DNA from: Clostridiales bacterium
GTDB lineage: Bacteria > Acidobacteriota > Aminicenantia > Aminicenantales > UBA8522
DNA: 64,000 nt
NCBI GenBank assembly: GCA_029907205.1
Contig: JARYMI010000016.1
Span: 959 to 64,958 of the forward strand
Direction of reading: 5' to 3'
Positions 28,495 through 63,722 of the stretch are shown here, piece after piece. Numbering within the stretch: position 1 is the stretch's first letter; every line of letters starts with the position of its first letter. A program made the translations under genes and the position numbers. The notes under the pieces are model-generated. The model saw only the letters and a list, made by a program, of their open reading frames with translations, was not told the DNA's origin and ran no database searches.

Positions 28495-28824
28495 TTAGCT
28501 CCGGCAGACCAACCCGTTCTTCTGGCATTTAATGACGGTCGGAGCTGATATCGAACAGGCGGCGGTATCCGTGTCGGCAAAAAGGATTTGGACAACATGC
28601 GTGCCGGCTGAAAGCGTCCATTCCTTGGTGCTTCCGGCCCCGACAATGCCATAGTTAATGCCGTTGATTATAATTTTGTAAGCCCTTCCTGATTGCGACT
28701 GGTTTTCGACATAAAAAATTCCCGTATTGTTTTTTTCACATTCTTCCATCAAGGCCTCGCAGGCCGGCATTAGGGCTAAGGAGATAAAAATCGATACGAG
28801 AAATATGGCGTTTTCTTTCTTCAT
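28495..28824 (-). CDS. Small secreted Cys-containing protein, unknown function
   Basis: MKKENAIFLVSIFISLALMPAC signal peptide. 109 aa. No recognisable domain. Confidence 0.4.
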   Translation of the reverse strand: MKKENAIFLVSIFISLALMPACEALMEECEKNNTGIFYVENQSQSGRAYKIIINGINYGIVGAGSTKEWTLSAGTHVVQILFADTDTAACSISAPTVIKCQKNGLVCRS

Positions 28825-29004
28825 GGTCGACACCTCGGCTCTCAATAAAAATGCTTATTTGCAATGATGATGATTTTGCGACAGCGAGTCAATCACCCCA
28901 TGGGGGGATTTTGAAGGTGATTTTTCTCCCCCGCCCCCTAATCAGAAGGATATCCATGAACCTAAGAAGAGGTTAATGATCGCCTTGAAACAGGAAGGTC
29001 TCGG

Positions 29005-49458: not shown

Positions 49459-50319
49459 TCAGGTGATTGGATCGCCTTCCGGGTATTTGGCGACGACTTC
49501 GACCGGAACTTCGAAGACTTTGCCCCAGCCCCCGAAACGCTGGACAACTTGCGGGCTGGTCAGCCCTCTTTTTTTCCCGTTCTCGATAAGATACACGGGC
49601 CGGTTGGGACGGTTGCTCTGCTCGATGATCAACCAGCCCTCAAACGTCAGGTCGATCATCTGTCCTTCTTCCATTTTTTCGAGCGTGTCATTGGACACTT
49701 CAACAAGATACTTCCAGGGGTCCTTTCCTCTTTTGAGGTCATAGTTGTAACGGAAAAGACTTTCAAGATCTTTAAAAGCTCGACGGACGTATTGACCCGG
49801 CCCCCGGCGCTCGATCATGTAGACGGCGTCTCTCCGTCCCTTTACATATCTCTGATGGAGATAAGCAAGGTTATCGGACATCGGCCACTTCGAGAACTCA
49901 GCGTCCATGGCGTTGAGAAGTCGTCGGCAAGCAGAGAGTTCATAAGGCATCACCTCCGCCTTTCTCATGGAGCTTTCGAGGTCCTGGAAGGCGCGAGTGA
50001 GGTAGAAAAAAGCGTTGTAGAGGTTTGTCCTCAGGAATCCAGCCCGATAATAATCGGACCTCTCCTCTGTCAGCCGCAAAAAGAGCCGGCAGGAGGCCAG
50101 AAAGGCCTCCGATTTAAAAAGGACTGCCTGTTCCTCATCGGAAATGGCATTGTTCCAGCCTTTGAAATGGCCAAAGCTCGTCTCAGCCAGGAACGAAGCC
50201 TGCTTTTCGAGTTCAAGAGCCAGGCCGTAGATTTGCTGTCTTCGATCGGCCCTGCCGGCTGAGAAAACTGTCAAGATAAAAATAATAAAAATGATTGGTT
50301 TGAGACCGTTCCTTTTCAT
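49459..50319 (-). CDS. Secreted/periplasmic hypothetical protein
   Basis: Start at MKRNGLKPIIFIIFILTVF with a GGAGG RBS. 287 aa. No motif recognised. Confidence 0.4.
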   Translation of the reverse strand: MKRNGLKPIIFIIFILTVFSAGRADRRQQIYGLALELEKQASFLAETSFGHFKGWNNAISDEEQAVLFKSEAFLASCRLFLRLTEERSDYYRAGFLRTNLYNAFFYLTRAFQDLESSMRKAEVMPYELSACRRLLNAMDAEFSKWPMSDNLAYLHQRYVKGRRDAVYMIERRGPGQYVRRAFKDLESLFRYNYDLKRGKDPWKYLVEVSNDTLEKMEEGQMIDLTFEGWLIIEQSNRPNRPVYLIENGKKRGLTSPQVVQRFGGWGKVFEVPVEVVAKYPEGDPIT

Positions 50320-50455
50320 CTTGACCTCCGGCTTTTCATGTCCTAAGTTATCTTTGTCCGGGCCGAAAGTCAACTAGGCATATTCGCCGCTCGTCAACCT
50401 TGACGGAAAAACTTGGCGGTGCTAAATTGGCGGAAAACAAAACAGAAGGGAGAGA

Positions 50456-50920
50456 TTGGATATGGACAAAACGAGAAGCTTGGCCAAGAGATACCAAAGA
50501 ATCCACGCCCAGCTCGCTGAGCTCTTTCTCAAGACGAAGAACAAAACCTCTCGTCTGGCCAGCATCGCCGCTCTCCTCCACCACAAAATGCCGCACTTCT
50601 TCTGGACCGGCTTCTACCTCCTCAGCGAAGGCGAGCTTGTTGTCGGGCCCTACCAGGGTTCCCTGGCCTGCCCGGTCCTTGAAAAACACAAAGGCGTCTG
50701 CTGGGCAGGCATTCTGCGTCGGCAGCCAGTCATCGTTCCCGATGTCCATCAATTCCCCGGACACATCGCCTGCGACAGCCGCTCCAACTCTGAGATTGTC
50801 ATCCCTCTGTTCGACGAAAAAGGCGAGGTCTGGGGGGTCCTGGACGTCGACAGCCGCGCCTTTGACGCTTTCACAGAAATTGATAGAGAATGGCTCGAGA
50901 AAATCGTTGCGTTGATTTAG
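50456..50920 (+). CDS. GAF-domain protein (free methionine-(R)-sulfoxide reductase-like)
   Basis: 154 aa. GAF fold pattern with a conserved Cys and HFFWTGFY, ACDSRSNSEIVIPL motifs, as in fRMsr/YebR. Confidence 0.6.
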   Translation: MDMDKTRSLAKRYQRIHAQLAELFLKTKNKTSRLASIAALLHHKMPHFFWTGFYLLSEGELVVGPYQGSLACPVLEKHKGVCWAGILRRQPVIVPDVHQFPGHIACDSRSNSEIVIPLFDEKGEVWGVLDVDSRAFDAFTEIDREWLEKIVALI

Positions 50921-50941: not shown

Positions 50942-52414
50942 TCACTCGGTATAGTATTTAATCACCCGGCGGACAGCCTCCTCGCAGACCTTGCAGAAGG
51001 GCTTGGCTCCTTTCGTGAACATCAAACAATCAACGGCCGGACGGTAAAGCCCCCAGGACGAATACCCAGCGCCTTCCATGGCACCGACCATCCCCGAGAA
51101 CCTGCTCCGGCGGAGAAACTCATCCACTTTGTTGGCCTGTTCCCGCGACAGTTTCTCGGACTCCTCCACGAGCCTTTCCACGTCGGCTAGCGGCGCTCCG
51201 GCTCTCTTCATGACCGCGATTCTCGTGTTGATCTCTGCGCGGATCTTCTGGTAGGCGCCGTCCATCCTGTCGAACTCTTCTTTCTCCCAGGGCGTGGGAA
51301 TCTCGATCTCCGGCGTGAGCAAGTCTTTCCACTTGAGGTTCTTGGGGTCAAGGAGGGCGGTGATGTTCGGCTCGAGCGGCTCGACCCCCTTCGGGTAGAA
51401 TTCGTTATAGGCAACCTCCGACGTGTAGTACTCGTCGGCCAGACCGGCGAACGAATGGCCAAATTCATGGAGGAAGAGATACTCATACCACTGATTGTCT
51501 GTGGTAAAAGTGCAGAAGAGGTTATAAATCCCGCCGCCGCCGTAACGCCTGTGATTGACCATGATGACAAGGGCGTCATAAGGAACATGAGCGGCGATGT
51601 TGCGCAAACTCTTGTTATCTTCTGTCAGGACATAGCGTTCAGAGCCGAGGGAATCAAAAGAGGCGCTCACGGCTGTGTTCTTATAGCTCCCGTGACTCGG
51701 CTCATCGCAACCGCTTTCAGCCGATGGTTTGAAAACACAAGAGAGGTTGAAAAGGTCGGGCCGGCTTTTATAAGGCTCCAGGCTGAAGAAGACCTCGGTA
51801 AAGCGTTTCAAGTCTGCAAGGAGTTTTTTCTCCTCGGCCGCCGTGTAACCCTCAGCGACGAAAGCGATGTCGACTTTCTCATGCGGGTCGCCGCTCTTAA
51901 GAACCCGAAGGACTTTCACCCCAGCGACGAGTGATTCCCTGTTGATGAAGATGTCAGCAGGGTCTATCTCGGCGCGAAAGATGGGCTGGAGAATATTCTC
52001 CCTGTTTCGTAACTCGACCGTAAAAATGATTTTGTTCTTGGGATACGGGATGAGGGCAGACTCATGGTACGTCCTTTTAACTCCGCGCAGCGCCATGTCC
52101 GTTGTCTTGTATTCTCCGAAATAGCTGTCAAAGCCCCGAGAAAAAATGAGCTCACCCGAGGCGGCATCGTACACTTTGACGCAATAGCGGCCGAGGTCAA
52201 AGGGATCAAGAAGGTTCTTGAGGCTCCCCGGCCAAACGCCTTGATCGTAAACCTGGTCGAGTGTGATAAACTCCTCTTTGGCGTCTCCACCGTGAAAGGT
52301 GTCTATGCGCATTGTCCGGTCGATAAAATATTTATCAAAGTCGACGGGAGACGCGGTGGCGAGAATTCCCGAAAAGATCAATATGAGAATAAAAAAAAGA
52401 AAACGCCTGGGCAT
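50942..52414 (-). CDS. M64-family (IgA-peptidase-like) zinc metallopeptidase, secreted
   Basis: Signal peptide. HEFGHSFAGLADEYY zinc-binding motif characteristic of peptidase M64. Start at the internal ATG with a GGAGG RBS. Confidence 0.7.
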   Translation of the reverse strand: MPRRFLFFILILIFSGILATASPVDFDKYFIDRTMRIDTFHGGDAKEEFITLDQVYDQGVWPGSLKNLLDPFDLGRYCVKVYDAASGELIFSRGFDSYFGEYKTTDMALRGVKRTYHESALIPYPKNKIIFTVELRNRENILQPIFRAEIDPADIFINRESLVAGVKVLRVLKSGDPHEKVDIAFVAEGYTAAEEKKLLADLKRFTEVFFSLEPYKSRPDLFNLSCVFKPSAESGCDEPSHGSYKNTAVSASFDSLGSERYVLTEDNKSLRNIAAHVPYDALVIMVNHRRYGGGGIYNLFCTFTTDNQWYEYLFLHEFGHSFAGLADEYYTSEVAYNEFYPKGVEPLEPNITALLDPKNLKWKDLLTPEIEIPTPWEKEEFDRMDGAYQKIRAEINTRIAVMKRAGAPLADVERLVEESEKLSREQANKVDEFLRRSRFSGMVGAMEGAGYSSWGLYRPAVDCLMFTKGAKPFCKVCEEAVRRVIKYYTE

Positions 52415-52440
52415 GGTCAAACCTCCTGTTTTGCTCCGTG

Positions 52441-53298
52441 TCAATTCTTTCGAGACCCCCGACCCTTCTGGACCATCTTTCCGGCCGTTTCCTTGATGAT
52501 CTTAACGGCTGCGGCCGCTGTGATCCCGGAGGGATCGCGCGTCGGGTTGAGCTCAACGACGTCCATCCCGACAAGATTTGCCTTTAAAGAATGGATGATG
52601 TCAACGGCCTGGCGTGTCGTCAGGCCTCCGGGCTCGTGATGGGAGACGCCTGGCGCAAAGGCCGGGTCGAGGGCGTCCAAATCAAAGGAGATATAAAGGG
52701 GATTCCGGAAACTCAAGACCGGCCCGCCTTCAAGGTCTTTCATCTCGATCATTCGGACACCATGACGGCTGGCCACAGCCCGCTGGTCTGAAGTGGCGGC
52801 CCTGACGCCAACCTGGACGAGTTCCTTGGCCAACCCCTCTTCCATGATTCGGGCAAAAGGGCAGGCGTGGGAATAGCGATCACCGTAAAGCTCTTCATAC
52901 AGGTCCGGATGGGCGTCAAAATGGAGGAGGGAGAGGGCAGAAAATTTTTTTGCCAGAGCTCTCACAACAGGATATGTGACGGAATGGTCACCTCCCAAGA
53001 TAATCGGCCTGGCTTTTTTCCCGACTACTTCCAAAACCGCGGCTTCAATTCGGCTGAAGGTCTTATCCACGTCGCCGGACGTATCCACATCACCCCAATC
53101 GACGAGCACCGCCTCCTTCTCAAGGTTGACGCCCAGTTCAGTGAACGGGTTAAGAGCTCTCCCTGTTGAAGCCGCCCGGATGGCTGCCGGCCCCAGAGCT
53201 GCTCCCCTGAGGAAGCAGGATTTTTCGTCAAAAGGAACCCCGATGATGGCAAGATCATAATCACGGCTTTTTTTGATGGCTCCACCGAAATCAGTCAT
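52441..53298 (-). CDS. Arginase/agmatinase-family ureohydrolase
   Basis: GGDHS, DAHPD and SFDLDALDP manganese-binding motifs. 285 aa. Translationally coupled to the flanking genes. Confidence 0.8.
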   Translation of the reverse strand: MTDFGGAIKKSRDYDLAIIGVPFDEKSCFLRGAALGPAAIRAASTGRALNPFTELGVNLEKEAVLVDWGDVDTSGDVDKTFSRIEAAVLEVVGKKARPIILGGDHSVTYPVVRALAKKFSALSLLHFDAHPDLYEELYGDRYSHACPFARIMEEGLAKELVQVGVRAATSDQRAVASRHGVRMIEMKDLEGGPVLSFRNPLYISFDLDALDPAFAPGVSHHEPGGLTTRQAVDIIHSLKANLVGMDVVELNPTRDPSGITAAAAVKIIKETAGKMVQKGRGSRKN

Positions 53299-53313
53299 GT
53301 CGGGCCTCCTCAG

Positions 53314-54561
53314 TCAGGAAACTGTCAAGATGGCAGCCGCAAAGCTGACAGCTGACGCCGTCGCTTCTTCTCGCCAGAATTCATAATCAAGAACCTGGCC
53401 CCGGGATTCTGGGAAAATTTCGAGAAGCGAGGCCAGGGTCCCGAGCCCGCAGACGTTGTACCTGTCTCTGACCCTCCGCGATTCAGCCCATAGAGCTTCA
53501 ACATCCCCGCGGCTGAGAGCCTCGAGGAGGGCATGGTCGTGCTGTTTAGCCTCAAGGAGGAGGGACATCGCCCTTTCCCGGTGGCCAAACTTTGGGCCGA
53601 TGTGGGAAAAATCGACGCCAGCGACAAAAAGAGAGTCATGTTTATTTTCATCCCAGCAGGCCCTCATCTCTTCCAAAAACCGGGCCACGTCGTTGATTTG
53701 GGAAGGGCGGGAAACACGTTCAACGTCTGCGGCGAAAGAGCCGCACAGGATGGGGACGAGAGAGAAGGATGTGCCGTAAAGGTGCTGGAGAAAAACGAGC
53801 TGGAACTCGAGAGAATGCTCCCGACGGTGGGAAATGTCGTAAGGGGCCACAGCGCGGTTGCCCGCTTTTTTAAGTTTGTTGACAACATCGCGGTCTGTCT
53901 TCGTTCGTCCAAGGGGCGTCTCGTAGTCTTTCTCCGTTAGAGAGAAATACCCTTCATCCAGGCTATGACCGGTGCCCAAAAGGAAAACCCGGCGGGGAGA
54001 GACATCCCTGATCGCCCGGTAGGCTTTGGCGTAGACTCTTTTTCCAACCTCAAAGTCGATGTGCGGAGCGATCAGAGCACAGATGCGGCCGGGAGGAGTC
54101 CCAGGGACGGCATCATCTCCCCCCGAAAAAAAGAAAGATTCAAGATAATGGGACAGCTCGCGGGGGTTGGCCGGATAAGAATGGCCCGCGTGGGATGCTT
54201 CCCTGACTTCGAGCCGGACATATTCCTCGAGAAGCCGTTCCTTTTCCTTCTGGTACTGCCAACTCTGCAGAAGAAAGGAGGCTTCCAGCTCAGCAACGAT
54301 CCTTTCGATGTGCCCGCAGTCAACGAGCATCCCCCGCTTCAGCCGGACGAACTCTACCTGGATATCCCGTACCGTCCTCTGACCGTCGATGAGTCCGAGT
54401 AGACTCAGCGCATCGCCCTGGAGTATGACGGGGTCACGGATCAACCCCAGGTGGTCCCTCACTAACAGAGCTTTTTCTCCCCGGTAGGACGTGGGAATGA
54501 CTTCCAGGTCCGTCCTCAGCCGCGGGATTGGGCTATCTTCTTTCATTTGGCTCGGAAACAA
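53314..54561 (-). CDS. PqqD-like peptide-binding (RRE) N-domain fused to a MEMO1/AmmeMemoRadiSam-B-like domain
   Basis: Residues 30-120 align to PqqD (LQGDALSLLGLIDGQRTVRDI resembles the PqqD LNETAAAILELVDGRRDV). Then the SHAGHSYP Memo HAG motif and a Memo-like body. TTG or ATG start 5 codons apart. Confidence 0.55.
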   Translation of the reverse strand: MFPSQMKEDSPIPRLRTDLEVIPTSYRGEKALLVRDHLGLIRDPVILQGDALSLLGLIDGQRTVRDIQVEFVRLKRGMLVDCGHIERIVAELEASFLLQSWQYQKEKERLLEEYVRLEVREASHAGHSYPANPRELSHYLESFFFSGGDDAVPGTPPGRICALIAPHIDFEVGKRVYAKAYRAIRDVSPRRVFLLGTGHSLDEGYFSLTEKDYETPLGRTKTDRDVVNKLKKAGNRAVAPYDISHRREHSLEFQLVFLQHLYGTSFSLVPILCGSFAADVERVSRPSQINDVARFLEEMRACWDENKHDSLFVAGVDFSHIGPKFGHRERAMSLLLEAKQHDHALLEALSRGDVEALWAESRRVRDRYNVCGLGTLASLLEIFPESRGQVLDYEFWREEATASAVSFAAAILTVS

Positions 54562-54781
54562 TAATAGCCTTCATTAAGTACATTTTTTTGGCCAAAAATG
54601 CAATATCAGGGAGGTCTTAAAAAAATGGCCTCCTTGATTCATTGTCTTGATTCAAGAAGGCCATCGAAAGGAGGGTGGGGGTGGGGGGAGAGAGGGATCT
54701 TAGCCCCCTCTCCTTTTTCACAACCTCGGCTACGCCTTGGATGAGAAAAACTCGAGCCTTTGAGGCTGCGACAACGTCATC

Positions 54782-54799
54782 CTGTCACACGCGTGACAG
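54782..54799. promoter_or_regulatory. 18-bp near-perfect palindrome CTGTCACACGCGTGACAG in the divergent intergenic region (candidate operator)
   Basis: 17 of 18 positions are self-complementary. It lies between the divergently oriented Memo-like operon and the ferritin-like gene. Confidence 0.45.
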
Positions 54800-54947
54800 C
54801 GGCGCAATCCCCTTTAAGGATGGTTTTGGGGGTGATCTTTCCTCCCCTCCTCTCCTCCCCATTCAGGCGCAGGCTCAAGCCCTTGATGGCTTTTCTTTTT
54901 CTGAGAAATGATTATAATCTGAGAGAAAAACACCACAAGGAGGACCC

Positions 54948-55928
54948 GTGGAAAAACTAAAAACAGTCAAGACGCAGCCGGACGCCCTAAGGCTGCTCAA
55001 CATTGCCCTGGAGCATGAATGGGCGGTGAGTTTCGAATACACCATCCACGCCTATTCCATGCCAAAAGGGGAATTTTTCTACGATGACCCGGTCATGAAA
55101 CTCAAGACTGACGCGAGGGCTCAGACAATCCAGATCGGCATCGACGAGATGTACCATGCCCTCCAGCTTGGCATTGTCATCACTCAACTGGGAGGGACCC
55201 CTTCATTCAAGACGGACAAAGTCATCCGCTATCCTAAGATCATCGAAAACCTCCGGCGGGACAAGATGACAGAAGACCTCGTCACCGACCTCTACCAGTC
55301 CGCCGAATGGGAAGAGGGCGCTTTCCCCAAGATTCAGAACATGGTCCTCAACATTTCTTACGACGAGGTGCGCCACTCGCGCCAGTTCGAGACGATGATC
55401 AGGACGATGGAAGAGGAGGGGTCGACTGAAGCCCTCTGCTTCAAAGAAACCCCGGATGCCGCCGCCAGAGAGGATGTCCGGCTTCTCCACGACATCACCC
55501 GTATGGAAAACGAGCTCATGCACCGCTACCTCAAGTACGTCATCCTTTTTAGCGAGCACCAGGACCTCAGCCAGCGGCTGTTCAAGAACTCGATCAACCA
55601 TATGCGGCACTGGGACAAGAACTCGGGCATCCTTGTCAAGCTGGGCAGCGTCATCCAGATTGAGAACGCGGTCAGGGACACTGACGGAGTCGAAAAAAGC
55701 ACGGACCCGATGCCATCGTTCTACCCGGGAGAGGACCGGCTGTCCGCCCTTGAAACGCTCATCCCGGCCGAGGAGAAGCTCATTGCCGCCTACGAAAGAC
55801 TTCTCAACCTGCTGCCGCCCGGAGAAATCAGGGATCAGATCGGCCTTCACCTTGGGCTGAACAGGGAGCATCTCTTCACCCAGGAATGGCTGCTCACAAA
55901 TGCCCGAAAGATTAAAGGGCTTCGCTGA
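54948..55928 (+). CDS. Ferritin-like superfamily di-iron protein
   Basis: Paired E...ExxH motifs (LEHEWAVSFEY, IDEMYHALQ, RMENELMHRYL, INHMRHW). 326 aa. Confidence 0.5.
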   Translation: MEKLKTVKTQPDALRLLNIALEHEWAVSFEYTIHAYSMPKGEFFYDDPVMKLKTDARAQTIQIGIDEMYHALQLGIVITQLGGTPSFKTDKVIRYPKIIENLRRDKMTEDLVTDLYQSAEWEEGAFPKIQNMVLNISYDEVRHSRQFETMIRTMEEEGSTEALCFKETPDAAAREDVRLLHDITRMENELMHRYLKYVILFSEHQDLSQRLFKNSINHMRHWDKNSGILVKLGSVIQIENAVRDTDGVEKSTDPMPSFYPGEDRLSALETLIPAEEKLIAAYERLLNLLPPGEIRDQIGLHLGLNREHLFTQEWLLTNARKIKGLR

Positions 55929-56003
55929 TAAGGTGGCCTCTGCGGCGGCCAGGAGGAGGATCGGCGGTTACGGAGAGGAACTTAGGTCATCGGAGGATGA
56001 ACC

Positions 56004-56564
56004 ATGAAAAACATAAGAACCCAGCTTAAGCGCTTTCAGTATTTCTACCCTTACACCGTGGCACTGGTGGGAGCTTCAGTCGGGGGCCAGGTCAACTTCA
56101 TGAGTTGCGCCTGGCACACAGCTCTCTCTTTCGACCCGCCGCTTTTCGGCGTTTTAGTCTCCCGCAAACGCTTCTCTCACGGGATCATCTCCAAGGCAAG
56201 AGAGTTCACAGTGAACTTTCTCAGCTTCGAGAGGGTAAAGCTGTCCGCCCAGATGGGCCGAAAATCAGGCCATGACCTGGACAAGGTCAAGGAGTTCAAG
56301 CTTCGCCTGGCACGCTCGAAGGTCATTCAATCTCCAATCGTGGAGGAGGCTTACGTTTCTTTTGAATGCCGGCTGGCTGAAGTGCGGGCTTACGGCGACC
56401 ATGACCTTTTTGTCGGTGAGGTTCTGGCTGTTCATGAGGAGCCCGGCTGTTTCAACGCCGAAGGGATTCTCAACCCGGGAAAGGTCCGGCCGCTTCTTTA
56501 CCTGGGAAGCGATTTTTACCTCACCGTCGACCAGGACACACTCAAGCACGTATTGCCAGACTAA
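56004..56564 (+). CDS. Flavin reductase-like FMN-binding protein
   Basis: VNFMSCAWHTALSFDPP motif of the flavin-reductase split-barrel family. 186 aa. Confidence 0.7.
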   Translation: MKNIRTQLKRFQYFYPYTVALVGASVGGQVNFMSCAWHTALSFDPPLFGVLVSRKRFSHGIISKAREFTVNFLSFERVKLSAQMGRKSGHDLDKVKEFKLRLARSKVIQSPIVEEAYVSFECRLAEVRAYGDHDLFVGEVLAVHEEPGCFNAEGILNPGKVRPLLYLGSDFYLTVDQDTLKHVLPD

Positions 56565-56621
56565 AATGGTCAAGAGCTTTTTTTCTAACCTTCGTTTCGC
56601 TATACTAATAAAGAAATTCTG

Positions 56622-57539
56622 ATGGCCGCTGTCCTCAAAGTTGAAAACCTCCACAAGTCCTTCAAGGTGGGGTTCATCCCCAAAAAGCGGGAAATCCTGA
56701 AGGGCATTTCTTTTTCGGTCGAGGCGGGGGAGATTTTCGGCTATCTCGGCCCCAACGGCGCCGGCAAAACCACCACTCTGAAGTGCACGCTTGGGTTGAT
56801 TTTCCCGGATCAGGGCCAAATCGAAATCTTCGGCCATTCCCACCTTTCCCTTGAGGCCAAAGAGCGCATCGGCTACCTGCCGGAAAGCCCTTATTTTTAT
56901 GAATACCTCACTGGGGGGGAGTTTCTTGATTTCTATGCCCGTCTTTTTCTGTTAGGAAAAAAAGAAAAGGAAGAAAGGATCCGAAGCCTCCTCCGGCTTG
57001 TGGGGCTGGAGCGGGCGGCCCGCCTCCAGCTCCGCAAATTCTCCCGCGGCATGCTCCAAAGAATCGGACTGGCCCAGGCGCTTATCAACGACCCTGAGCT
57101 TGTTTTTCTCGATGAGCCGTTGGGCGGCCTCGACCCTCTCGGCCGGAAAGAGCTCAGGGATATCATCATTCGCTTAAAACGAGAGGGGAAAACGATCTTC
57201 CTATGCTCCCATATCCTCCAGGACATCGAGATGATCTGCGACCGGGTGGCCATCCTTGTCGGCGGCCGGGTCATCAGCCAGGGAGCGCTTGAGGCCCTTG
57301 TCTCGGAAAAAATCCTTTACACCGAGGTCACTCTGTCTGGCCTCTCTGAATCCGACCTCGAGGGCTTAGGCGAGCCGGTCTCCTCTCATGGCGACAGGAT
57401 AATGCTCAAAGTTTTTCAGGAGGATAACATCGAGCGCCTGGTGGCTCTTGTTCAAGATAAGAAGGCGAGAATCCATTCTCTTGTCCCCCGGACAGAAACT
57501 CTTGAAGATATTTTTGTCGAAATGGTGAGACAGGGATGA
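56622..57539 (+). CDS. ABC transporter ATP-binding protein (ABC-2 type)
   Basis: Walker A GPNGAGKTT, LSGGMLQRIGLAQAL-like signature, Walker B LVFLDEP. 305 aa. Confidence 0.85.
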   Translation: MAAVLKVENLHKSFKVGFIPKKREILKGISFSVEAGEIFGYLGPNGAGKTTTLKCTLGLIFPDQGQIEIFGHSHLSLEAKERIGYLPESPYFYEYLTGGEFLDFYARLFLLGKKEKEERIRSLLRLVGLERAARLQLRKFSRGMLQRIGLAQALINDPELVFLDEPLGGLDPLGRKELRDIIIRLKREGKTIFLCSHILQDIEMICDRVAILVGGRVISQGALEALVSEKILYTEVTLSGLSESDLEGLGEPVSSHGDRIMLKVFQEDNIERLVALVQDKKARIHSLVPRTETLEDIFVEMVRQG

Positions 57540-58300
57540 AAATCAAAGCGATCGCGCTCAACACGTTTAAGGAGGCGATCCGGGACCGCATCCTCTATCT
57601 CCTTTTCTTTTTTGCCGCCGTTTCCGTCATTTTTTCCCGGGTGCTGGCTGTCCTGACTGTCGGCGACCGGGTTAAGATCGTCAAGGATGTCGGCCTGGCC
57701 TCGATCTCTCTTTTCGGCGTCTTGATGGCCGTTATGATCGGCACGGGCCTGGTCTATAAGGAAATCGACAAAAAGACGATCTACACCCTTATTTCGAAGC
57801 CCATCCGCCGCTTCGAGTTTCTCTTGGGAAAATTCTTTGGCTTGGTCTTGACCCTGCTCATCATGACGTCCCTCATGAGCTTGATATTCCTCCTCACGGT
57901 CTTTTTTCACACCTTTAAGATTGAAGCCGGGCTTCTCTTGGCCGTCCTGTTTATTTTTATCGAGCTCATCCTCATCACGGCGGTGGCTATTCTCTTCTCC
58001 TGTTTCTCGACCCCGATCCTGAGCTCTCTTTTTTCCCTGTCTTTCTTTCTCATCGGGCATTTCTCCTGGAGCCTCGAAACTCTCATCCAGAAGACCAAGT
58101 CAGCGCCGCTGAAGCTCTTCATCCAGGCGCTCTATGCCCTCCTCCCAGACCTGGAGAATTTCAATTTCAAGACAGAAGTCGTCTACGGGTTGACGGTCCT
58201 TCCAAAATATTACCTTTTTTCCGCCCTCTACGGCCTGGCCTACACGGCTTTCATCCTGACGCTGGCCGTCCTCATCTTCAAGAGAAGGGATTTCGTCTGA
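57536..58300 (+). CDS. ABC-2 family transporter permease
   Basis: 6 TM helices, 254 aa. Start overlaps the upstream stop. Confidence 0.7.
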   Translation: MKIKAIALNTFKEAIRDRILYLLFFFAAVSVIFSRVLAVLTVGDRVKIVKDVGLASISLFGVLMAVMIGTGLVYKEIDKKTIYTLISKPIRRFEFLLGKFFGLVLTLLIMTSLMSLIFLLTVFFHTFKIEAGLLLAVLFIFIELILITAVAILFSCFSTPILSSLFSLSFFLIGHFSWSLETLIQKTKSAPLKLFIQALYALLPDLENFNFKTEVVYGLTVLPKYYLFSALYGLAYTAFILTLAVLIFKRRDFV

Positions 58301-59169
58301 TGCCCGTGAGAGCCGTATCGGCCCGCCGAAAGAGTTTCTCTGCAATCTTTATCTTTTTCTTCGCCGTCCTCTTGTTGGGCGGCATCATTGCGCTCAAGAT
58401 CGAAGTGGACAGGATTCCCCGGAAGAAAATCCCCGGCGCTTCCATCATCTACATTCCCTCCGGCAAGTACATGAAATACGCGACGTTCGGCTACTCCTCA
58501 GTCGTCGCAGACCTCGTCTATCTCTGGGCCATCCAGTATTACAGCACGCTCACCATTGTCGACCGGTATCAGAACCTCGAGCACATCTTCTCCATCATCG
58601 CGGAGCTCGACCCGCGCTACAAGGACCCGTACGAAGTCGGCGCCCTCATCGCGATATACGAAGCCAAGGATCTCGAACTTGGCTTAAGAATTCTGGACAT
58701 GGGCCTGGCCAAGAACCCGGGTGAGTGGATTTTCCCGTTCCAGGCCGGGCACTACGCTCAGCTGGCCAAGGACTTCGAGCTGGCCCGCAAGTATTACGAG
58801 AAAGCGATGAAAATCCCCGGTGCGCCCGACATCGCAAAAAGGCTCTATGCGGCGGCCAGCTTCAGGACAATGGACCTCAAAGCGTCCTGGGAAACCTGGC
58901 AGGAAATCTATGCGACCGCCACAGACCAGCGCGTCAAGGACATCGCCCTGAGGCATCTTTACCGTGTGAAATCGGCCATAGACATCGCCCTCCTCGAAGA
59001 AGCGATTGCCAGGTTCAAAGAGCGGTACGGCCGCAACCCTGAGGAACTAAAAGAGCTCGTGCGGGCGCGATTTCTGCCGTCCTTGCCCAAGGATCTGGAC
59101 GGAAAAGATTACGTCTACGACAAGGAGAAAGGAGAGCCAAGCGCTCCCACAATCTGGTGGAAAAAGTAA
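58300..59169 (+). CDS. Membrane-anchored helical-repeat (TPR-like) protein, unknown function
   Basis: N-terminal TM, then an all-alpha repeat region. ATGA overlap with the permease. Confidence 0.4.
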   Translation: MPVRAVSARRKSFSAIFIFFFAVLLLGGIIALKIEVDRIPRKKIPGASIIYIPSGKYMKYATFGYSSVVADLVYLWAIQYYSTLTIVDRYQNLEHIFSIIAELDPRYKDPYEVGALIAIYEAKDLELGLRILDMGLAKNPGEWIFPFQAGHYAQLAKDFELARKYYEKAMKIPGAPDIAKRLYAAASFRTMDLKASWETWQEIYATATDQRVKDIALRHLYRVKSAIDIALLEEAIARFKERYGRNPEELKELVRARFLPSLPKDLDGKDYVYDKEKGEPSAPTIWWKK

Positions 59170-59921
59170 TCATTATCCTATTCGGTTTAGCCTGGGGAAG
59201 CTTCCTCAACGTCGTCATCTATCGTCTTCCCCGCGGGCAGAGCCTCGTCCGGCCTCCTTCTTCCTGCCCCCGCTGCGGAAAAAGAATCAAAGCGCGCGAC
59301 AACATCCCCGTTCTTTCGTTCCTCCTTCTTAGGGGCAAGTGCCGGTCCTGCGGGGCGCGGATCTCTCTTGTTTACCCGGTGGTCGAAATCCTGACGGCGC
59401 TTTGCTTGCTTCTTCTCTACTATCAGCATTCGCTGAGCCTCCATTTTTTTGCGTCCTGCTTCTTTGCAAGTGCCCTTATCGTTCTCGGTTTTATCGATTA
59501 CTTCCACCAGATCCTTCCCGACGAGATCACTCTCCCGGGACTCGTGTTGGCTGTCCTCTACGCTTTCTTCCGGCCTGATCTGAGCCTGCGACAGGGGCTC
59601 ATCGGCGCGGTCGCCGGGGCATCTTTCTTGCTCCTCATCTACGCAGCCTACTATTTCCTCAGGAAAAAAGAAGGCCTGGGCATGGGCGACGTGACTATGA
59701 TGCTCTTTGTCGGCGCTTATTTAGGCTGGCTAAAGGCTTTCCTGACACTTATCCTGGCCTCTCTCGCGGGAGCGGTCGTCGGACTATTCCTTCTGTATTT
59801 CCGCAAAAAAGACCTCCACTACGCCCTTCCTTTCGGAACATTCCTCGCGCCGGCGGCCTTTTTCTCGCTTGTCTGGGGCGAAAGGCTTATCGCCGCCTAC
59901 CTCAGCCTTTTCCGACAGTAG
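59157..59921 (+). CDS. pilD: Prepilin peptidase (A24 family)
   Basis: N-terminal tetra-Cys motif CPRCG...CRSCG. Multi-TM body with conserved Asp residues. 254 aa. Confidence 0.8.
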   Translation: MEKVIIILFGLAWGSFLNVVIYRLPRGQSLVRPPSSCPRCGKRIKARDNIPVLSFLLLRGKCRSCGARISLVYPVVEILTALCLLLLYYQHSLSLHFFASCFFASALIVLGFIDYFHQILPDEITLPGLVLAVLYAFFRPDLSLRQGLIGAVAGASFLLLIYAAYYFLRKKEGLGMGDVTMMLFVGAYLGWLKAFLTLILASLAGAVVGLFLLYFRKKDLHYALPFGTFLAPAAFFSLVWGERLIAAYLSLFRQ

Positions 59922-59985
59922 CCACCAACGACGGGGCCGGTCCTCTTTTGAGGACCGTTCACGGATTTGAATTTTCCCCCTGACT

Positions 59986-61824
59986 GTGATAATTGACAGA
60001 AGACAGGGTCTGCAGATGTCTCAAGGAAGGACCGCGAGCCAGATCATCTTGGTCGTTTTCCTCCTTTCTCTGGGCTCTTCCCTTTTTATCAACCTCCCTG
60101 TCATCCATCAGCACTTCCTGTTCTCCGACCAGGCCGTTTATTACGCCATGACTCAGAGCATCGCCCACGACGGAGACTTGGAGTACACGAAAAAAGACCT
60201 CATCCGGTATTATGAAGATTTCATGGCCGGACCTCAGGGCATTTTCCTGAAAAAAGCCTCAAACGGCAAGCTCTTCTACGCCAAATCCTGGGCTTACTCG
60301 CTGTTCGCCGCTCCCTTTGTCAGGGTTTTCGGGTATAACGGCTTCCTCGTCTTTCATTCCCTCCTTTTTCTCCTCATCCTGCTCATGGGGTATGCCTACC
60401 TGTCGCTTTCCAACTCCCCGGTTTCCTCAATCGTCTACCTTCTCTCCTTTCTTTTCGCCTCTGTGGCCGGCGTTTATTTTCTCTGGATCACCCCTGATTT
60501 TTTCAACCTGGCCCTGGTCTTCGCCATTATTTTTCTCTGGCTCTACAAGATTAAACACGGCGAACTGCCGCCCGAGGAAAGGAGCCCCGTCCGCTCGGAT
60601 AATATCTTCCTGCGCTCCTGGACCGACTATGCGGCGGCGATTCTCATCGGTGTTGCGACTTTCTCCAAGCCGCCAAACATCGTCCTTATGGCTCCGCTCG
60701 TCGTTTTCGCCTTTGTTAGGAAAAGAATTGTCAAGGCGCTCGTCCTGAGCCTGGTTTTTGTCCTCACTCTCAGCCTCTTCTTCGGGATGAATTATCTCCT
60801 GACGTCCGAATGGAATTATCAGGGCGGCGAGCGAAAGACTTTTTTCTTCACTTTCCCTTTAGAAAGGAATGAATTCACTTTTGACAACCTGGGCCATACA
60901 ATGACCTCCGAGGGCTATTTCCAGGAGTTTCTGTTGCCGCCCCAGTTCATTTTCTTTAACATCTTCTACTATTTCTTCGGCCGGTACACGGGACTGACCT
61001 GGTATTTTTTTCCTGCTGTCCTGGCCCTTATTCTTTTCTTTTCTTCCTCTAGGCGTAGGCTCTGCGACTGGCTTGTCCTAGCCACGGCAGCGGGAGGCAT
61101 TCTGATTTACATCGTCTTCATGCCCGACAACTACAGCGGAGGCGGCGGCTCTCTGGCCAACCGCTATTTCCTCAACATCTACCCGCTTTTCCTCTTCCTT
61201 CCGCCCGGGGGAAAAAAACGCCGGGACATCATCCTCATCTGGGTCATGGCGGCTATTTTCATCTCGCAGATCCTTGTCAGCCCCTTCCGCTCTTCGGCTC
61301 AGCCAGCCACCCACGCCAAGAGGTTTCCGTTCAAAGCCCTGCCCGTAGAGATGACCCTGGTCAATAACCTCCCCACCAACACGAACCCGGATGCCTTTCG
61401 CGTGCACATCTGGCCGGATAAGCCTCAGCCGGCCAGGGAATTCCTCCACTTCCTGGACGACAACTTCTACCCCAGGCTTGAACCCACGGGCATCTGGACG
61501 CGGGGCGCAAAAACCTGCGAGCTGATCCTGAAAACCTATTATCCCCTTCGGGAAATAGGCGTCCGCGTGCTCAACAACCCGAGAGCCAACAACGAGATCA
61601 CAGTCAGGGTAGAGGGGCAAACCAAGAAGGTCGTCCTCCAGCCCATGCAGCGGGCAACGCTCAGCTTTCCCGTTGGGAACGGGTTTAAGGTTGAAGAACG
61701 TTACAACTACCGGATTAAAATCAAGGCAGCCAAAGGTTCCATCCCCTATTATGAAGACCAGGCCAGCAAGGAGAGGCGGTATTTGGGCGTCTTCTTTGAG
61801 CTCAACCTTGTCCCCAGAGAATAA
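59986..61824 (+). CDS. Polytopic membrane protein, possible GT-C-type glycosyltransferase
   Basis: About 10 TM helices in the N-terminal 420 aa plus a soluble roughly 190-aa C-domain. No definitive motif. Confidence 0.35.
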   Translation: MIIDRRQGLQMSQGRTASQIILVVFLLSLGSSLFINLPVIHQHFLFSDQAVYYAMTQSIAHDGDLEYTKKDLIRYYEDFMAGPQGIFLKKASNGKLFYAKSWAYSLFAAPFVRVFGYNGFLVFHSLLFLLILLMGYAYLSLSNSPVSSIVYLLSFLFASVAGVYFLWITPDFFNLALVFAIIFLWLYKIKHGELPPEERSPVRSDNIFLRSWTDYAAAILIGVATFSKPPNIVLMAPLVVFAFVRKRIVKALVLSLVFVLTLSLFFGMNYLLTSEWNYQGGERKTFFFTFPLERNEFTFDNLGHTMTSEGYFQEFLLPPQFIFFNIFYYFFGRYTGLTWYFFPAVLALILFFSSSRRRLCDWLVLATAAGGILIYIVFMPDNYSGGGGSLANRYFLNIYPLFLFLPPGGKKRRDIILIWVMAAIFISQILVSPFRSSAQPATHAKRFPFKALPVEMTLVNNLPTNTNPDAFRVHIWPDKPQPAREFLHFLDDNFYPRLEPTGIWTRGAKTCELILKTYYPLREIGVRVLNNPRANNEITVRVEGQTKKVVLQPMQRATLSFPVGNGFKVEERYNYRIKIKAAKGSIPYYEDQASKERRYLGVFFELNLVPRE

Positions 61825-63722
61825 TGTGCGGCATCTGCGGCATCGCCACAACTTCAAAGGCCGAGGCGGTATCCCCCGCTGTTTTGACATCGATGTGCCG
61901 GACGATTGTCCACCGCGGCCCTGACGATGAGGGAATTTATAAGGAAGAAACAGCGGGCCTGGCCGCCCGGCGGCTGAGCATCATCGACCTTGCCGGCGGC
62001 CATCAACCCCTGGCCAACGAGGACCGGACAATCTGGATCGCCCATAACGGCGAGGTGTACAATTTCCCGCAGTTGCGGGAGGCGCTGGCCGGACGCGGCC
62101 ACGTCTTCCGGACCCGCACAGATACAGAGACGATCGTCCACAGCTACGAAGAATGGGGTGAAGAATTTGTCCATAAGCTCAGGGGCATGTTCGCTTTTGC
62201 TATCTGGGACGGCCGAGAACGAAAGCTTCTTTTAGTGAGGGACAGGCTTGGCGTCAAACCCCTCTATTACACTCTCCTGGGCGACGGGACTCTCGTTTTC
62301 GGCTCAGAGCTCAAAGCCGTCATCGCCCATCCTCAGGTGCAAAGGGCCCTTGAGCCGAAAGCTCTGGACTTGTACCTGACTCTCGAGTACGTGCCGGCGC
62401 CTTTCAGCATGTTCAAAGACATCCACAAGCTTCCGGCCGGAAGCATCCTTGTTTACAAAGAAGGCCAGGCCGAAATCAAGAGCTATTGGGATGTTGTGGC
62501 GGCGCTGCCTAAAAAACGGGAGGTCACGGAAAAAGAGCTGCCGGCCATCATGGATGAGCTCTACGCTCTTCTCAAGGAATCGGTCCATCTGAGGCTCATC
62601 AGCGACGTGCCGCTGGGCGCTTTCCTGAGCGGCGGGATTGACTCCTCGACCATCGTCGGGCTGATGAGAGAGCTCGGCGCCTCGCCGCTCAAGACATTCT
62701 CCATCGGGTTTGAAGAGGTTTCCTATAACGAGCTTAAATATGCCCGCCGGGTCGCCGAAAGATTCGCCACCGACCACGAGGAATTCATCCTCGAGCCTCA
62801 GGCGCTTGAACTCACCGAGAAGCTCATCCGTCATTTAGATGAGCCGTTCGGCGATTTCTCCATCTTCCCCACCTATCTGGTCAGCCAGATGGCCCGCTCC
62901 CGGGTGAAGGTCATCCTCTCTGGAGACGGAGGGGACGAAGTCTTCGGCGGTTACGAACATTATCAAGCGCAAAAAATCGCCGGCTCTAAGGCTGTTAAAA
63001 CAGCCGGGCGCCCCCTCTCTCGCTTGATCAACACCTTCCCGCCCTCGAGCAAGAAAAAAGGTTTCTGGAATAAGCTCCAGAGATACCTCCTTGGGCTCGA
63101 ACAGGACCCAAGGCTCAGGCATTTACGGTGGATGACCTTCCTCTCCTCCCGGGACAAGGGCAGACTCTACACGGACGACTTGAAAACTCGATTGGGCGGG
63201 CTGGAAGAGATGACTGAGCTTTCCCCGTTTCGCGAAATTTTTGCCGCACTTCCCTCCTTCGACCCGATAAACGGGGAGCTTTATCTTGACCTCAAGACCT
63301 ACCTGGCTGACGACATCATGGTCAAAGTGGACAGGATGAGCATGGCCGCCTCCCTTGAAGCCAGAGAGCCTCTTTTAGACCATAAACTCGTCGAGTTTGC
63401 TTTCAGCCTGCCGGGCGGGCTCAAGCTCAACGGGCTCAAAACGAAATGGGTATTCAAGAAAACAATGGAGAGGCTTCTCCCGCGGGAGAATATCTACCGG
63501 CCCAAGGAGGGGTTCAGCATCCCGATCAAGCACTGGCTACGGCACGAGCTCAAGGATATGCTTCTCGACTATCTGAGCGAAAAGAGAATCAAGGAGCAAG
63601 GTCTGTTCAACTATGGCCCCGTCAAGAAAATGATCGACGGCCACCTCACCGGACGGAAAAACTGGAGTCACCAGCTCTGGGCTCTCCTCGTCTTTGAAGT
63701 CTGGCGCGAGAATTACCTGTAA
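61824..63722 (+). CDS. asnB: Asparagine synthetase (glutamine-hydrolysing)
   Basis: MCGICGI Ntn-amidotransferase start and SGGIDSS PP-loop motif. 632 aa. Confidence 0.85.
   Translation: MCGICGIATTSKAEAVSPAVLTSMCRTIVHRGPDDEGIYKEETAGLAARRLSIIDLAGGHQPLANEDRTIWIAHNGEVYNFPQLREALAGRGHVFRTRTDTETIVHSYEEWGEEFVHKLRGMFAFAIWDGRERKLLLVRDRLGVKPLYYTLLGDGTLVFGSELKAVIAHPQVQRALEPKALDLYLTLEYVPAPFSMFKDIHKLPAGSILVYKEGQAEIKSYWDVVAALPKKREVTEKELPAIMDELYALLKESVHLRLISDVPLGAFLSGGIDSSTIVGLMRELGASPLKTFSIGFEEVSYNELKYARRVAERFATDHEEFILEPQALELTEKLIRHLDEPFGDFSIFPTYLVSQMARSRVKVILSGDGGDEVFGGYEHYQAQKIAGSKAVKTAGRPLSRLINTFPPSSKKKGFWNKLQRYLLGLEQDPRLRHLRWMTFLSSRDKGRLYTDDLKTRLGGLEEMTELSPFREIFAALPSFDPINGELYLDLKTYLADDIMVKVDRMSMAASLEAREPLLDHKLVEFAFSLPGGLKLNGLKTKWVFKKTMERLLPRENIYRPKEGFSIPIKHWLRHELKDMLLDYLSEKRIKEQGLFNYGPVKKMIDGHLTGRKNWSHQLWALLVFEVWRENYL

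Follow-up and report, generated by a model that had tools for sequence, protein, structure and literature searches.

Proteins of the Memo family are conserved from bacteria to humans, and we know of no bacterial member for which a substrate has been identified. A peptide-recognition domain joined to a Memo protein is the clearest available hint that this branch of the family acts on peptides or proteins, and we analyse here a gene for such a protein in a 64,000-nucleotide (nt) stretch of contig JARYMI010000016.1 (assembly GCA_029907205.1, positions 959 to 64,958; hereafter the window). Between 50942 and 54561, the minus strand of the window carries three co-directional open reading frames (ORFs), which encode a fusion of a RiPP (ribosomally synthesised and post-translationally modified peptide) recognition element (RRE) to a Memo domain, an arginase-type ureohydrolase and an M64 metallopeptidase. 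An initial annotation of this DNA had located the same three ORFs, and their Pfam matches (Memo, Arginase, and M64_N with Peptidase_M64) bear it out; it went on to read them as a peptide-modification system built around a fusion that it took to be undescribed. That fusion had already been named. RRE–Memo (PF01875) is listed by the Mitchell laboratory among RRE fusions "unprecedented in RiPPs" (mSystems, November 2025; PMC12710340), and the supplement of that paper holds an RRE-Finder model for it, RREFam044 'Memo_RRE'; the treatment consists of one sentence and a hidden Markov model (HMM), with no substrate, gene context or chemistry.

We think it probable, if not strongly so, that the RRE–Memo protein of the window, a member of this known fusion family, acts on a peptide or protein from a gene elsewhere in the genome, that its gene neighbours are ordinary enzymes and not obligatory partners, and that no precursor gene is present at the locus. 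The analysis adds gene-context data to a fusion so far merely named in the literature, and we see its main value in a negative gene-context result and in a conserved, regulated, small-RNA-like element upstream of the genes that is absent from Rfam.

The N-terminal part of the protein is recognisable by its fold. An extension of about 112 amino acids (aa) lies ahead of the Memo domain, which begins ASHAGHSYP (residues 116-124), and it is kept in all of the 120 best homologues, each about 410 aa long. AlphaFold2 (AF2) returned a pLDDT (predicted local distance difference test) of 92 for the whole protein, with 36 homologues, and of 92.8 for the isolated N-terminal domain, with 29. In these models DSSP assigns strands to residues 15-21, 24-30 and 40-43 and helices to residues 44-50, 59-69 and 77-89, followed by a linker helix, which is the β-β-β-α-α-α order of the winged helix-turn-helix by which RREs are defined (PMC12710340). 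When the domain was compared with the PDB by Foldseek, ranks 1 to 5 all went to RRE proteins, namely PqqD (5sxy), ThcOx, TbiB1 twice and PqqD of X. campestris (3g2b); the best match, PqqD of M. extorquens (5sxy), has probability 1.0, template-modelling (TM) scores of 0.53/0.61 and 24% identity over 97 columns, and the E-values of the RRE matches are just 0.015-0.35, owing to the small size of the domain. The TbiB1 structure that was ranked twice includes a leader peptide. With PqqD and the other RREs (5sxy, 3g2b, TbiB1 5v1v, ThcOx 5lq4, PaaA 5ff5) the domain shares the same βββ-ααα winged helix at 16-24% identity.

In sequence, on the other hand, the resemblance to PqqD that the initial annotation had proposed stays below threshold, also in the HMM searches. 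Residues 1-112 alone have no Pfam match even at E<=10. PqqD (PF05402) is the most frequent Pfam match in 30 diverse members, yet it is found in two of the 30, with a best E of 0.0057, which is sub-threshold. The sole match of a narrower N-terminal profile to PDB sequences is the RRE of PaaA, likewise sub-threshold (E 0.09), and a profile of more diverse N-termini gave chance-level matches there, topped by DNA polymerase IV (E 0.055). No search thus gave the window protein a significant sequence match to a PqqD or RRE model, and what stands of the proposal is the fold: as modelled, the N-terminal domain is a winged helix of the RRE/PqqD type. Its charged residues R11, D13, R30/D31 and R60/D61 are very highly conserved, and R11, D31 and G34 are invariant across phyla. 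The domain is far more conserved across phyla than the usual RREs, from which the protein also differs in having Memo as fusion partner and in standing without an adjacent precursor or a RiPP-type cluster.

The Memo domain is plain from sequence and structure alike. It matches Pfam Memo (PF01875) at E 6e-44 over residues 121-410 (150.7 bits against a cut-off of 27) and TIGR04336, AmmeMemoRadiSam protein B, at 114 bits against a cut-off of 26 over residues 115-389, and in Foldseek it superposes on MEMO1 (7kq8) at a TM score of 0.80 and then on LigB-type extradiol dioxygenases. H162, H194, D312, H315 and C366 are invariant in 36 homologues; in the alignment with MEMO1 they fall opposite its motifs PHAG, GPSH, DFCH and CG and correspond to its metal ligands. 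Judged by these residues, the His/His/Asp/His/Cys metal site is intact. Set beside MEMO1 (3bcz, 7kq8, 7l5c) and TIGR04336, with which it shares fold, metal-site motifs and HMM scores above cut-off, the window protein adds the 112-aa RRE with its linker, and it has PHID in place of PHAG in the first metal motif. A PqqD-like domain joined to a Memo-type domain, as the initial annotation had it, is thus borne out by an RRE fold on one side and a Memo domain with an intact metal site on the other.

The fusion is neither rare nor confined to the relatives of this bacterium. A search through one genome for each GTDB species gave at least 489 loci encoding relatives, of which the best 80 were fetched; these belong to Aminicenantes, Desulfobacterota, Planctomycetota, Acidobacteriota, Fermentibacteria, Deferrimicrobiaceae and one archaeon-labelled bin, and the extension is present in all of the relatives at these fetched loci. 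A protein search with RRE–Memo returned more than 1000 homologue matches. Searching 1.84 billion representative proteins with a profile built on the extension only gave at least 849 clusters at 50% identity, 160 of them at E<=1e-10; every full-length match among the 849 is a Memo fusion of 390-440 aa, and the short matches are fragments from the ends of contigs, which reach into the Memo start motif. Since all full-length matches to the profile are Memo fusions, this RRE subfamily is essentially exclusive to Memo. RRE–Memo is, then, an already catalogued, large and phylogenetically broad fusion family. The proteins of RREFam044 have the same N-terminal βββ-ααα RRE followed by Memo, and there too the RRE was found mainly by structure and not by sequence; the window protein shows no difference in kind, its membership resting on architecture and fold. 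The initial annotation had itself named, as an outcome that would tell against its proposal, that the extension be a standard part of many stand-alone Memo proteins, and this is largely what the 849 or more clusters, the 489 or more loci and the unrelated neighbours outside Aminicenantia amount to. As a separate observation, one relative (P0172, 595 aa) is longer by about 190 aa at the C-terminus, a rare three-part architecture in which the G-rich GLPGSGRRT suggests, by eye, a P-loop.

Only in Aminicenantia-type loci do the ureohydrolase gene (agm) and the M64 gene follow memo. The synteny there comprises an ABC-2 (ATP-binding cassette type 2) transporter, a flavin reductase, a ferritin-like protein, Memo, agm, M64, a GAF protein and a secreted protein of 304 aa (p304). 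Elsewhere the neighbours of memo are housekeeping genes unrelated to these, among them those for a sodium:dicarboxylate (SDF) symporter, a class-V aminotransferase, TilS (tRNA-Ile lysidine synthetase), a histone deacetylase (HDAC)-type amidohydrolase, mannitol dehydrogenase, LOG, a FolC-like ligase, an M24 methionine aminopeptidase and a CDP-alcohol transferase. The gaps that flank memo at these non-Aminicenantia loci are often 4-8 nt, or the genes overlap, so that there is often no room for a precursor gene. The initial annotation had seen no obvious precursor in the window, and the wider comparison agrees: across 75 loci, no small-ORF family is conserved within 2 kb of the fusion, except for frames that lie over the upstream non-coding element, on both strands. 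The same search also gave unrelated small proteins 2-3 kb away, at three loci each. Two of the neighbours deserve mention in their own right. In some Desulfobacterota (L040 and L047, in a cluster found at five Desulfobacterota loci) the TilS gene ends 4 nt before the RRE–Memo start or overlaps it, and at L037 the gene for the HDAC-type amidohydrolase ends 8 nt before RRE–Memo.

Within Aminicenantia the linkage is itself labile. With the invariant core of the upstream element as anchor, 120 metagenome loci were fetched, in which the first gene 3' of the element is memo in 67, an arginase-family gene in 29 and the gene for the 304-aa protein in one. Where a locus extends at least 4.2 kb downstream, the raw counts are 22 for the order memo-agm-M64 (with or without p304), 12 for agm-M64, 7 for memo-agm (with or without p304), 5 for memo-M64-p304, 4 for agm alone and 2 for memo without agm or M64; as all six orders occur, none of the three genes is indispensable there. 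A RiPP cluster would be expected to hold a precursor gene and modifying enzymes that co-occur across taxa, and what we find is no precursor and a gene set confined to one class. The arginase-family enzyme and the protease look like lineage-specific company, and not like parts of one peptide-modifying machine, and with a linkage that is both restricted and labile the operon lends little weight to the peptide-modification system that had been proposed for it.

The two neighbouring enzymes, taken by themselves, point the same way. The ureohydrolase matches Pfam Arginase at E 9e-77. On the agmatinase model TIGR01230, whose cut-off is 174.3 bits, it scores 212 bits and is colinear from position 11 to 272 of 275. 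In the PDB, plant arginases rank first (6vss/6vsu, E 2e-64), ahead of bacterial agmatinases (about 1e-40), and the next relatives include guanidinobutyrase and proclavaminate amidinohydrolase. All of the binuclear-metal motifs of agmatinases and arginases (GGDHS, DAHxD, SxDxDxxDP) are complete in the translation, as ILGGDHS, HFDAHPD and SFDLDALDP, and similarity to enzymes of the SpeB and plant arginase ARGAH type (6vss, 6vsu, 7lol, 1wog) is full-length, with an HMM score at equivalog level. Peptide arginases do occur in RiPP pathways (PMC10028609, PMC12703449), and one of them, OspR of the landornamide pathway (8BRP), contains an added domain for dimerisation, Ser170-Ser234, and its identity to conventional enzymes is low (PMC10028609). 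The window enzyme shares with OspR the arginase fold and the binuclear metal site, but it lacks the insertion of about 65 aa, plant arginases are its closest relatives, and 8BRP lies outside its 60 best PDB matches. Because it has 285 aa, is colinear with agmatinase and is without the OspR insertion, it is best read as an agmatinase or arginase of free substrates; the conversion of peptidyl-arginine to ornithine, which had been suggested for it, does not suit an enzyme of this canonical small-molecule type. The M64 protein has both domains of its family (M64_N, PF16217, E 9e-38, 129 bits; Peptidase_M64, PF09471, E 3e-91, 306 bits), the HEXXH zinc motif in the form HEFGH, and PDB matches to the Bacteroides M64-like proteins 4df9 (E 7e-83) and 3p1v (E 3e-76). 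Like other M64 peptidases, of the type of the Clostridium ramosum IgA peptidase, it appears to carry an export signal, a putative N-terminal hydrophobic segment read by eye, MPRRFLFFILILIFSGILATA. It would thus be exported and act outside the cytoplasm, whereas RRE–Memo and the ureohydrolase are without a signal sequence. We take it to be an ordinary exported peptidase, for which a role in leader removal is unsupported.

How the protein might work can be put as follows. The RRE would bind part of a peptide or protein whose gene lies elsewhere in the genome and would deliver it to the Memo domain, where the His/His/Asp/His/Cys metal site would carry out a metal-dependent, probably redox, modification. 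The ureohydrolase would be a cytoplasmic, Mn-type enzyme acting on free agmatine or arginine, and it and the M64 peptidase would serve arginine/agmatine and peptide catabolism; in Aminicenantia both would be co-located, and probably co-transcribed, with RRE–Memo without an obligatory partnership. The small ORF and the hairpin upstream belong to a separate conserved unit made of a promoter and a small-RNA-like element. Several points weigh against this reading. To our knowledge peptide binding has so far been demonstrated for no Memo_RRE, and no substrate, metal or chemistry has been established for the bacterial Memo proteins; the conserved charged residues of the N-terminal domain could equally fit an interdomain contact or a contact with a partner protein. 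In 34 of about 42 Aminicenantia genome loci agm lies directly 3' of memo, in some loci the two ORFs overlap by 4 nt (L005, L029) or stand 1 nt apart (L021, L023-L025), and there may be a functional link between memo and agm within Aminicenantia. The gene-order counts come from metagenome loci without dereplication, and genes missing at a locus, such as memo, may lie elsewhere in the same genomes.

Some of these points would suit a domain that has lost peptide binding and become a winged helix for oligomerisation, regulation or docking, with Memo acting on a small molecule and, in Aminicenantia, working alongside the ureohydrolase in arginine, agmatine or polyamine metabolism. The unusual conservation of R11, D31 and G34 would fit a constant ligand or interface, no adjacent precursor is found at any of the 75 loci, Memo has the fold of extradiol dioxygenases that act on small molecules, agm comes directly after memo at most Aminicenantia genome loci, and at one Desulfobacterota locus a gene of the HDAC/acetylpolyamine-amidohydrolase type lies 8 nt ahead of memo. 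We nevertheless hold this to be unlikely: the agm linkage is absent outside one class and often broken within it, the full βββ-ααα topology is retained with leader-binding RREs as best matches, and we know of no Memo protein with a small-molecule activity. A RiPP-like pathway, in which RRE–Memo modifies a leader-bearing precursor encoded elsewhere or unrecognised, the arginase-fold enzyme makes ornithine and M64 removes the leader after export, would draw on the same RRE fold, on three tightly spaced co-directional genes with no internal terminator found, on the recurrence of the memo-agm-M64 order in Aminicenantia, on a divergent ABC-2 transporter operon about 2 kb away and on the existence of peptide arginases in such pathways (PMC10028609, PMC12703449). 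Yet the ORF proposed upstream is non-coding and no small ORF is conserved beside the fusion across the 75 loci, any of the three genes can be missing from the locus, other phyla have the fusion on its own, the ureohydrolase scores above the agmatinase equivalog cut-off with free-substrate enzymes as nearest relatives and no OspR domain, the peptidase would be extracytoplasmic and the other two enzymes have no signal peptide, and the nearby operon is a housekeeping mix with a prepilin peptidase and a true AsnB. We regard such a pathway as quite improbable.

The name carried by the homologues, 'AmmeMemoRadiSam system protein B', and the TIGR04336 score would make RRE–Memo the B component of a canonical AmmeMemoRadiSam system, acting with an AMMECR1-like protein and a radical SAM (S-adenosylmethionine) enzyme. 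This seems highly improbable, given that neither AMMECR1 nor a radical SAM family was found over about 10 kb around RRE–Memo in the window and in a close relative, nor among the recurrent neighbours in 75 loci, and that the NCBIfam model covers residues 115-389 only, so that the name ignores the RRE extension. A bolder proposal, which we consider rather improbable, is that RRE–Memo is a leader- or tail-guided metalloenzyme that installs a new post-translational modification on a distantly encoded target, that the ureohydrolase and M64 were recruited in Aminicenantia, and, separately, that the upstream RNA is a new regulatory RNA, a cis leader or small RNA (sRNA), controlling the locus. We return, then, to an RRE–Memo protein that acts on a peptide or protein from elsewhere in the genome. 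That the fusion is nearly always without a precursor and is not tied to its Aminicenantia neighbours redirects the search for a substrate from those neighbours to the proteome, and it keeps a "new RiPP pathway" annotation, attractive but weak, from spreading.

Table 1. Features of the RRE–Memo locus and of its upstream region (window coordinates).
Feature	Position	Strand	Details and basis
RRE–Memo fusion gene	53314..54546	-	410 aa; ATG 54546; stop TGA 53316-53314
RRE domain	~residues 8-95 = nt 54262-54525	-	Predicted fold and Foldseek
Linker helix of RRE–Memo	residues 96-112		AlphaFold model
Memo domain	residues 114-410 = nt 53317-54207	-	Pfam, TIGR04336, fold
Ureohydrolase gene (agmatinase / plant-arginase type, binuclear-metal)	52441..53298	-	285 aa
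Secreted M64 zinc metallopeptidase gene (putative signal)	50942..52414	-	490 aa; ATG 52414, AGGAGG 7 nt upstream
Weak promoter-like site of three-gene unit (predicted)	54575..54603	-	TTGCAT-17 nt-TACTTA; position conserved in related loci
Small-RNA-like transcript or 5' leader (predicted)	54619..54772	-	Covariance model, covariation
Operator and sigma-70-type promoter of upstream unit (predicted)	54773..54836	-	Position matrix, 77/82 non-redundant sequences
Operator inverted repeat	TCACC (54835-54831), ~18 nt, GG(T)GA	-	Plus direct repeat; alignment
-35 and extended -10	-35 TTGCGC (54807-54802), -10 CAGGAT (54784-54779)	-	Family consensus -35 TTGACC; gapless 17-nt spacer, then TG

The three genes are tightly packed (Table 1) and probably form one transcription unit of an Aminicenantes-type bacterium, their spacing being somewhat looser than the two 4-bp overlaps first reported. 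The annotated ATG of RRE–Memo is its most likely start, and the product is identical to an NCBI protein from a metagenome-assembled genome (MAG). From its stop codon to the ureohydrolase ATG at 53298, which is the first start possible in that frame, there is a 15-nt spacer that holds the Shine-Dalgarno sequence GAGGAGG. A 4-nt overlap of ureohydrolase and M64 would need M64 to start at TTG 52444; with ATG 52414 the spacer is about 26 nt and holds AGGAGG. The ATG is the likelier start, since that AGGAGG stands 7 nt ahead of it and since the same start is called in a 91%-identical relative (L201), where the M64 product has 490 aa and the two spacers are 16 and 26 nt. A consensus promoter and terminator scan, uninformative for this locus, found no convincing terminator between the three genes. 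The promoter-like site ahead of them falls below the threshold of that consensus promoter scan, and the alignment shows ATTGCnTTTTT ... GTAnTnAAT conserved as a block that follows the upstream terminator and precedes the start codon.

The spacer of about 400 nt between the Memo and ferritin-like genes holds an element that is conserved at the nucleotide level, persisting across genomes whose Memo proteins are merely 50-65% identical, and for which Rfam has no family at either gathering or E-value thresholds. Its 5' half reads as an operator that overlaps an extended -10 promoter, with a predicted transcript start near 54772. In the matrix from 77/82 non-redundant sequences, TTG stands at 100%, TG at 86/84%, and A2 and T6 of the -10 (consensus nAnnaT) at 95% each, and the spacer is fixed at 17 nt with no conservation of its sequence. 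We had considered the whole element as one structured RNA or riboswitch, with a long-range P1 in which UCACC pairs with GGUGA, and rejected it: the 5' half is gapless and fits a TTGACC-N17-TGn-nAnnAT promoter with operator. The promoter and operator reading of the 5' half draws on those gapless columns and on a partial second copy that the covariance model finds on the minus strand at 28865-28930. This copy has the operator and -35 part only, reads AAATCACC ... GGGGTGATTGACT, 17 nt, CATCAT, and lies upstream of ORF 28495-28845, a gene for a small putative lipoprotein (MKKENAIFLVSIFISLALMPAC...). The two operator copies suggest a regulon under one transcription factor. Another motif match, at 60879, falls inside a coding region and was dismissed as chance, and six metagenome loci with the 23-nt core only are probably chance matches as well.

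At about 95-155 nt, the predicted transcript combines a nearly invariant core, AGGCnnnGCCrAGGUUGUGAAAAGG, with a GC-rich covarying hairpin. In the group to which the window belongs, this hairpin is followed by CCCUCCUUUC and then by a second hairpin with U7 (54662-54619), its stem at 54662-54627 and its T7 at 54625-54619 on the minus strand. The hairpin with a T-run noted initially is therefore real, and it is the terminator hairpin of the conserved non-coding element. In genomes in which agm comes first, the GC-rich hairpin is directly followed by a U-run, and then come a TATAAT-like element and the agm ribosome-binding site. The element folds better than its shuffles (z = -4.3), 90.7% of the cells in the consensus structure are paired against 46-53% in slid controls, and 11 pairs show compensatory change, mostly in the GC-rich hairpin. 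The covariance model scores 149 bits on the element of the window and recovers it at 30 genome loci from Aminicenantia, in 29 of which it has the orientation of memo, the element being inverted in L014; it stands directly 5' of memo, agm or the gene for the 304-aa protein in more than 130 Aminicenantia loci. The RNA could be an independent sRNA, in line with its own terminator, the promoter-like site that follows and the one inverted case, or it could be an attenuating leader, in line with its place always directly 5' of the first gene and the terminator at its end. The 39-codon ORF of the initial annotation (54618-54737, plus strand) does exist, but it is not conserved as a coding sequence: stops interrupt its frame in L001, the closest relative, and in many other genomes. 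It is antisense to the transcript and conserved solely opposite the invariant core, and on this pattern it is not a precursor gene.

Beyond the element, a divergent plus-strand operon (54948-63722) with overlaps of 1-4 nt is housekeeping in character, encoding a 326-aa ferritin-like protein (weak Pfam match), a flavin reductase, an ABC-2 ATPase and permease, a 289-aa protein, an A24 prepilin peptidase, a 612-aa protein and AsnB, which starts MCGI. Throughout Aminicenantia the ferritin-like protein and the flavin reductase are kept as a pair. An asparagine-synthase homologue and an ABC transporter within 9 kb could recall a lasso-peptide context, which we rejected on the MCGI start and full GATase domains of a true AsnB and on the prepilin peptidase in the operon. 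On the other side of the three genes, a minus-strand gene (49459-50373) encodes the 304-aa protein, whose N-terminal segment resembles a signal and for which Pfam has no family; it is syntenic 3' of M64 in many Aminicenantia loci and sometimes comes directly after the RNA-like element. Convergent with the M64 gene is a plus-strand gene (50456-50920) for a 154-aa GAF-domain protein whose sequence pattern appears to resemble that of free methionine-(R)-sulfoxide reductase. Lastly, the NCBI protein identical to RRE–Memo is labelled 'MAG: Clostridiales bacterium' and several syntenic MAGs (L002, L005 and others) 'uncultured Eubacteriales bacterium'; both the nearest relatives and the entire block of synteny belong to Candidatus Aminicenantes, and the Clostridiales and Eubacteriales labels look wrong.

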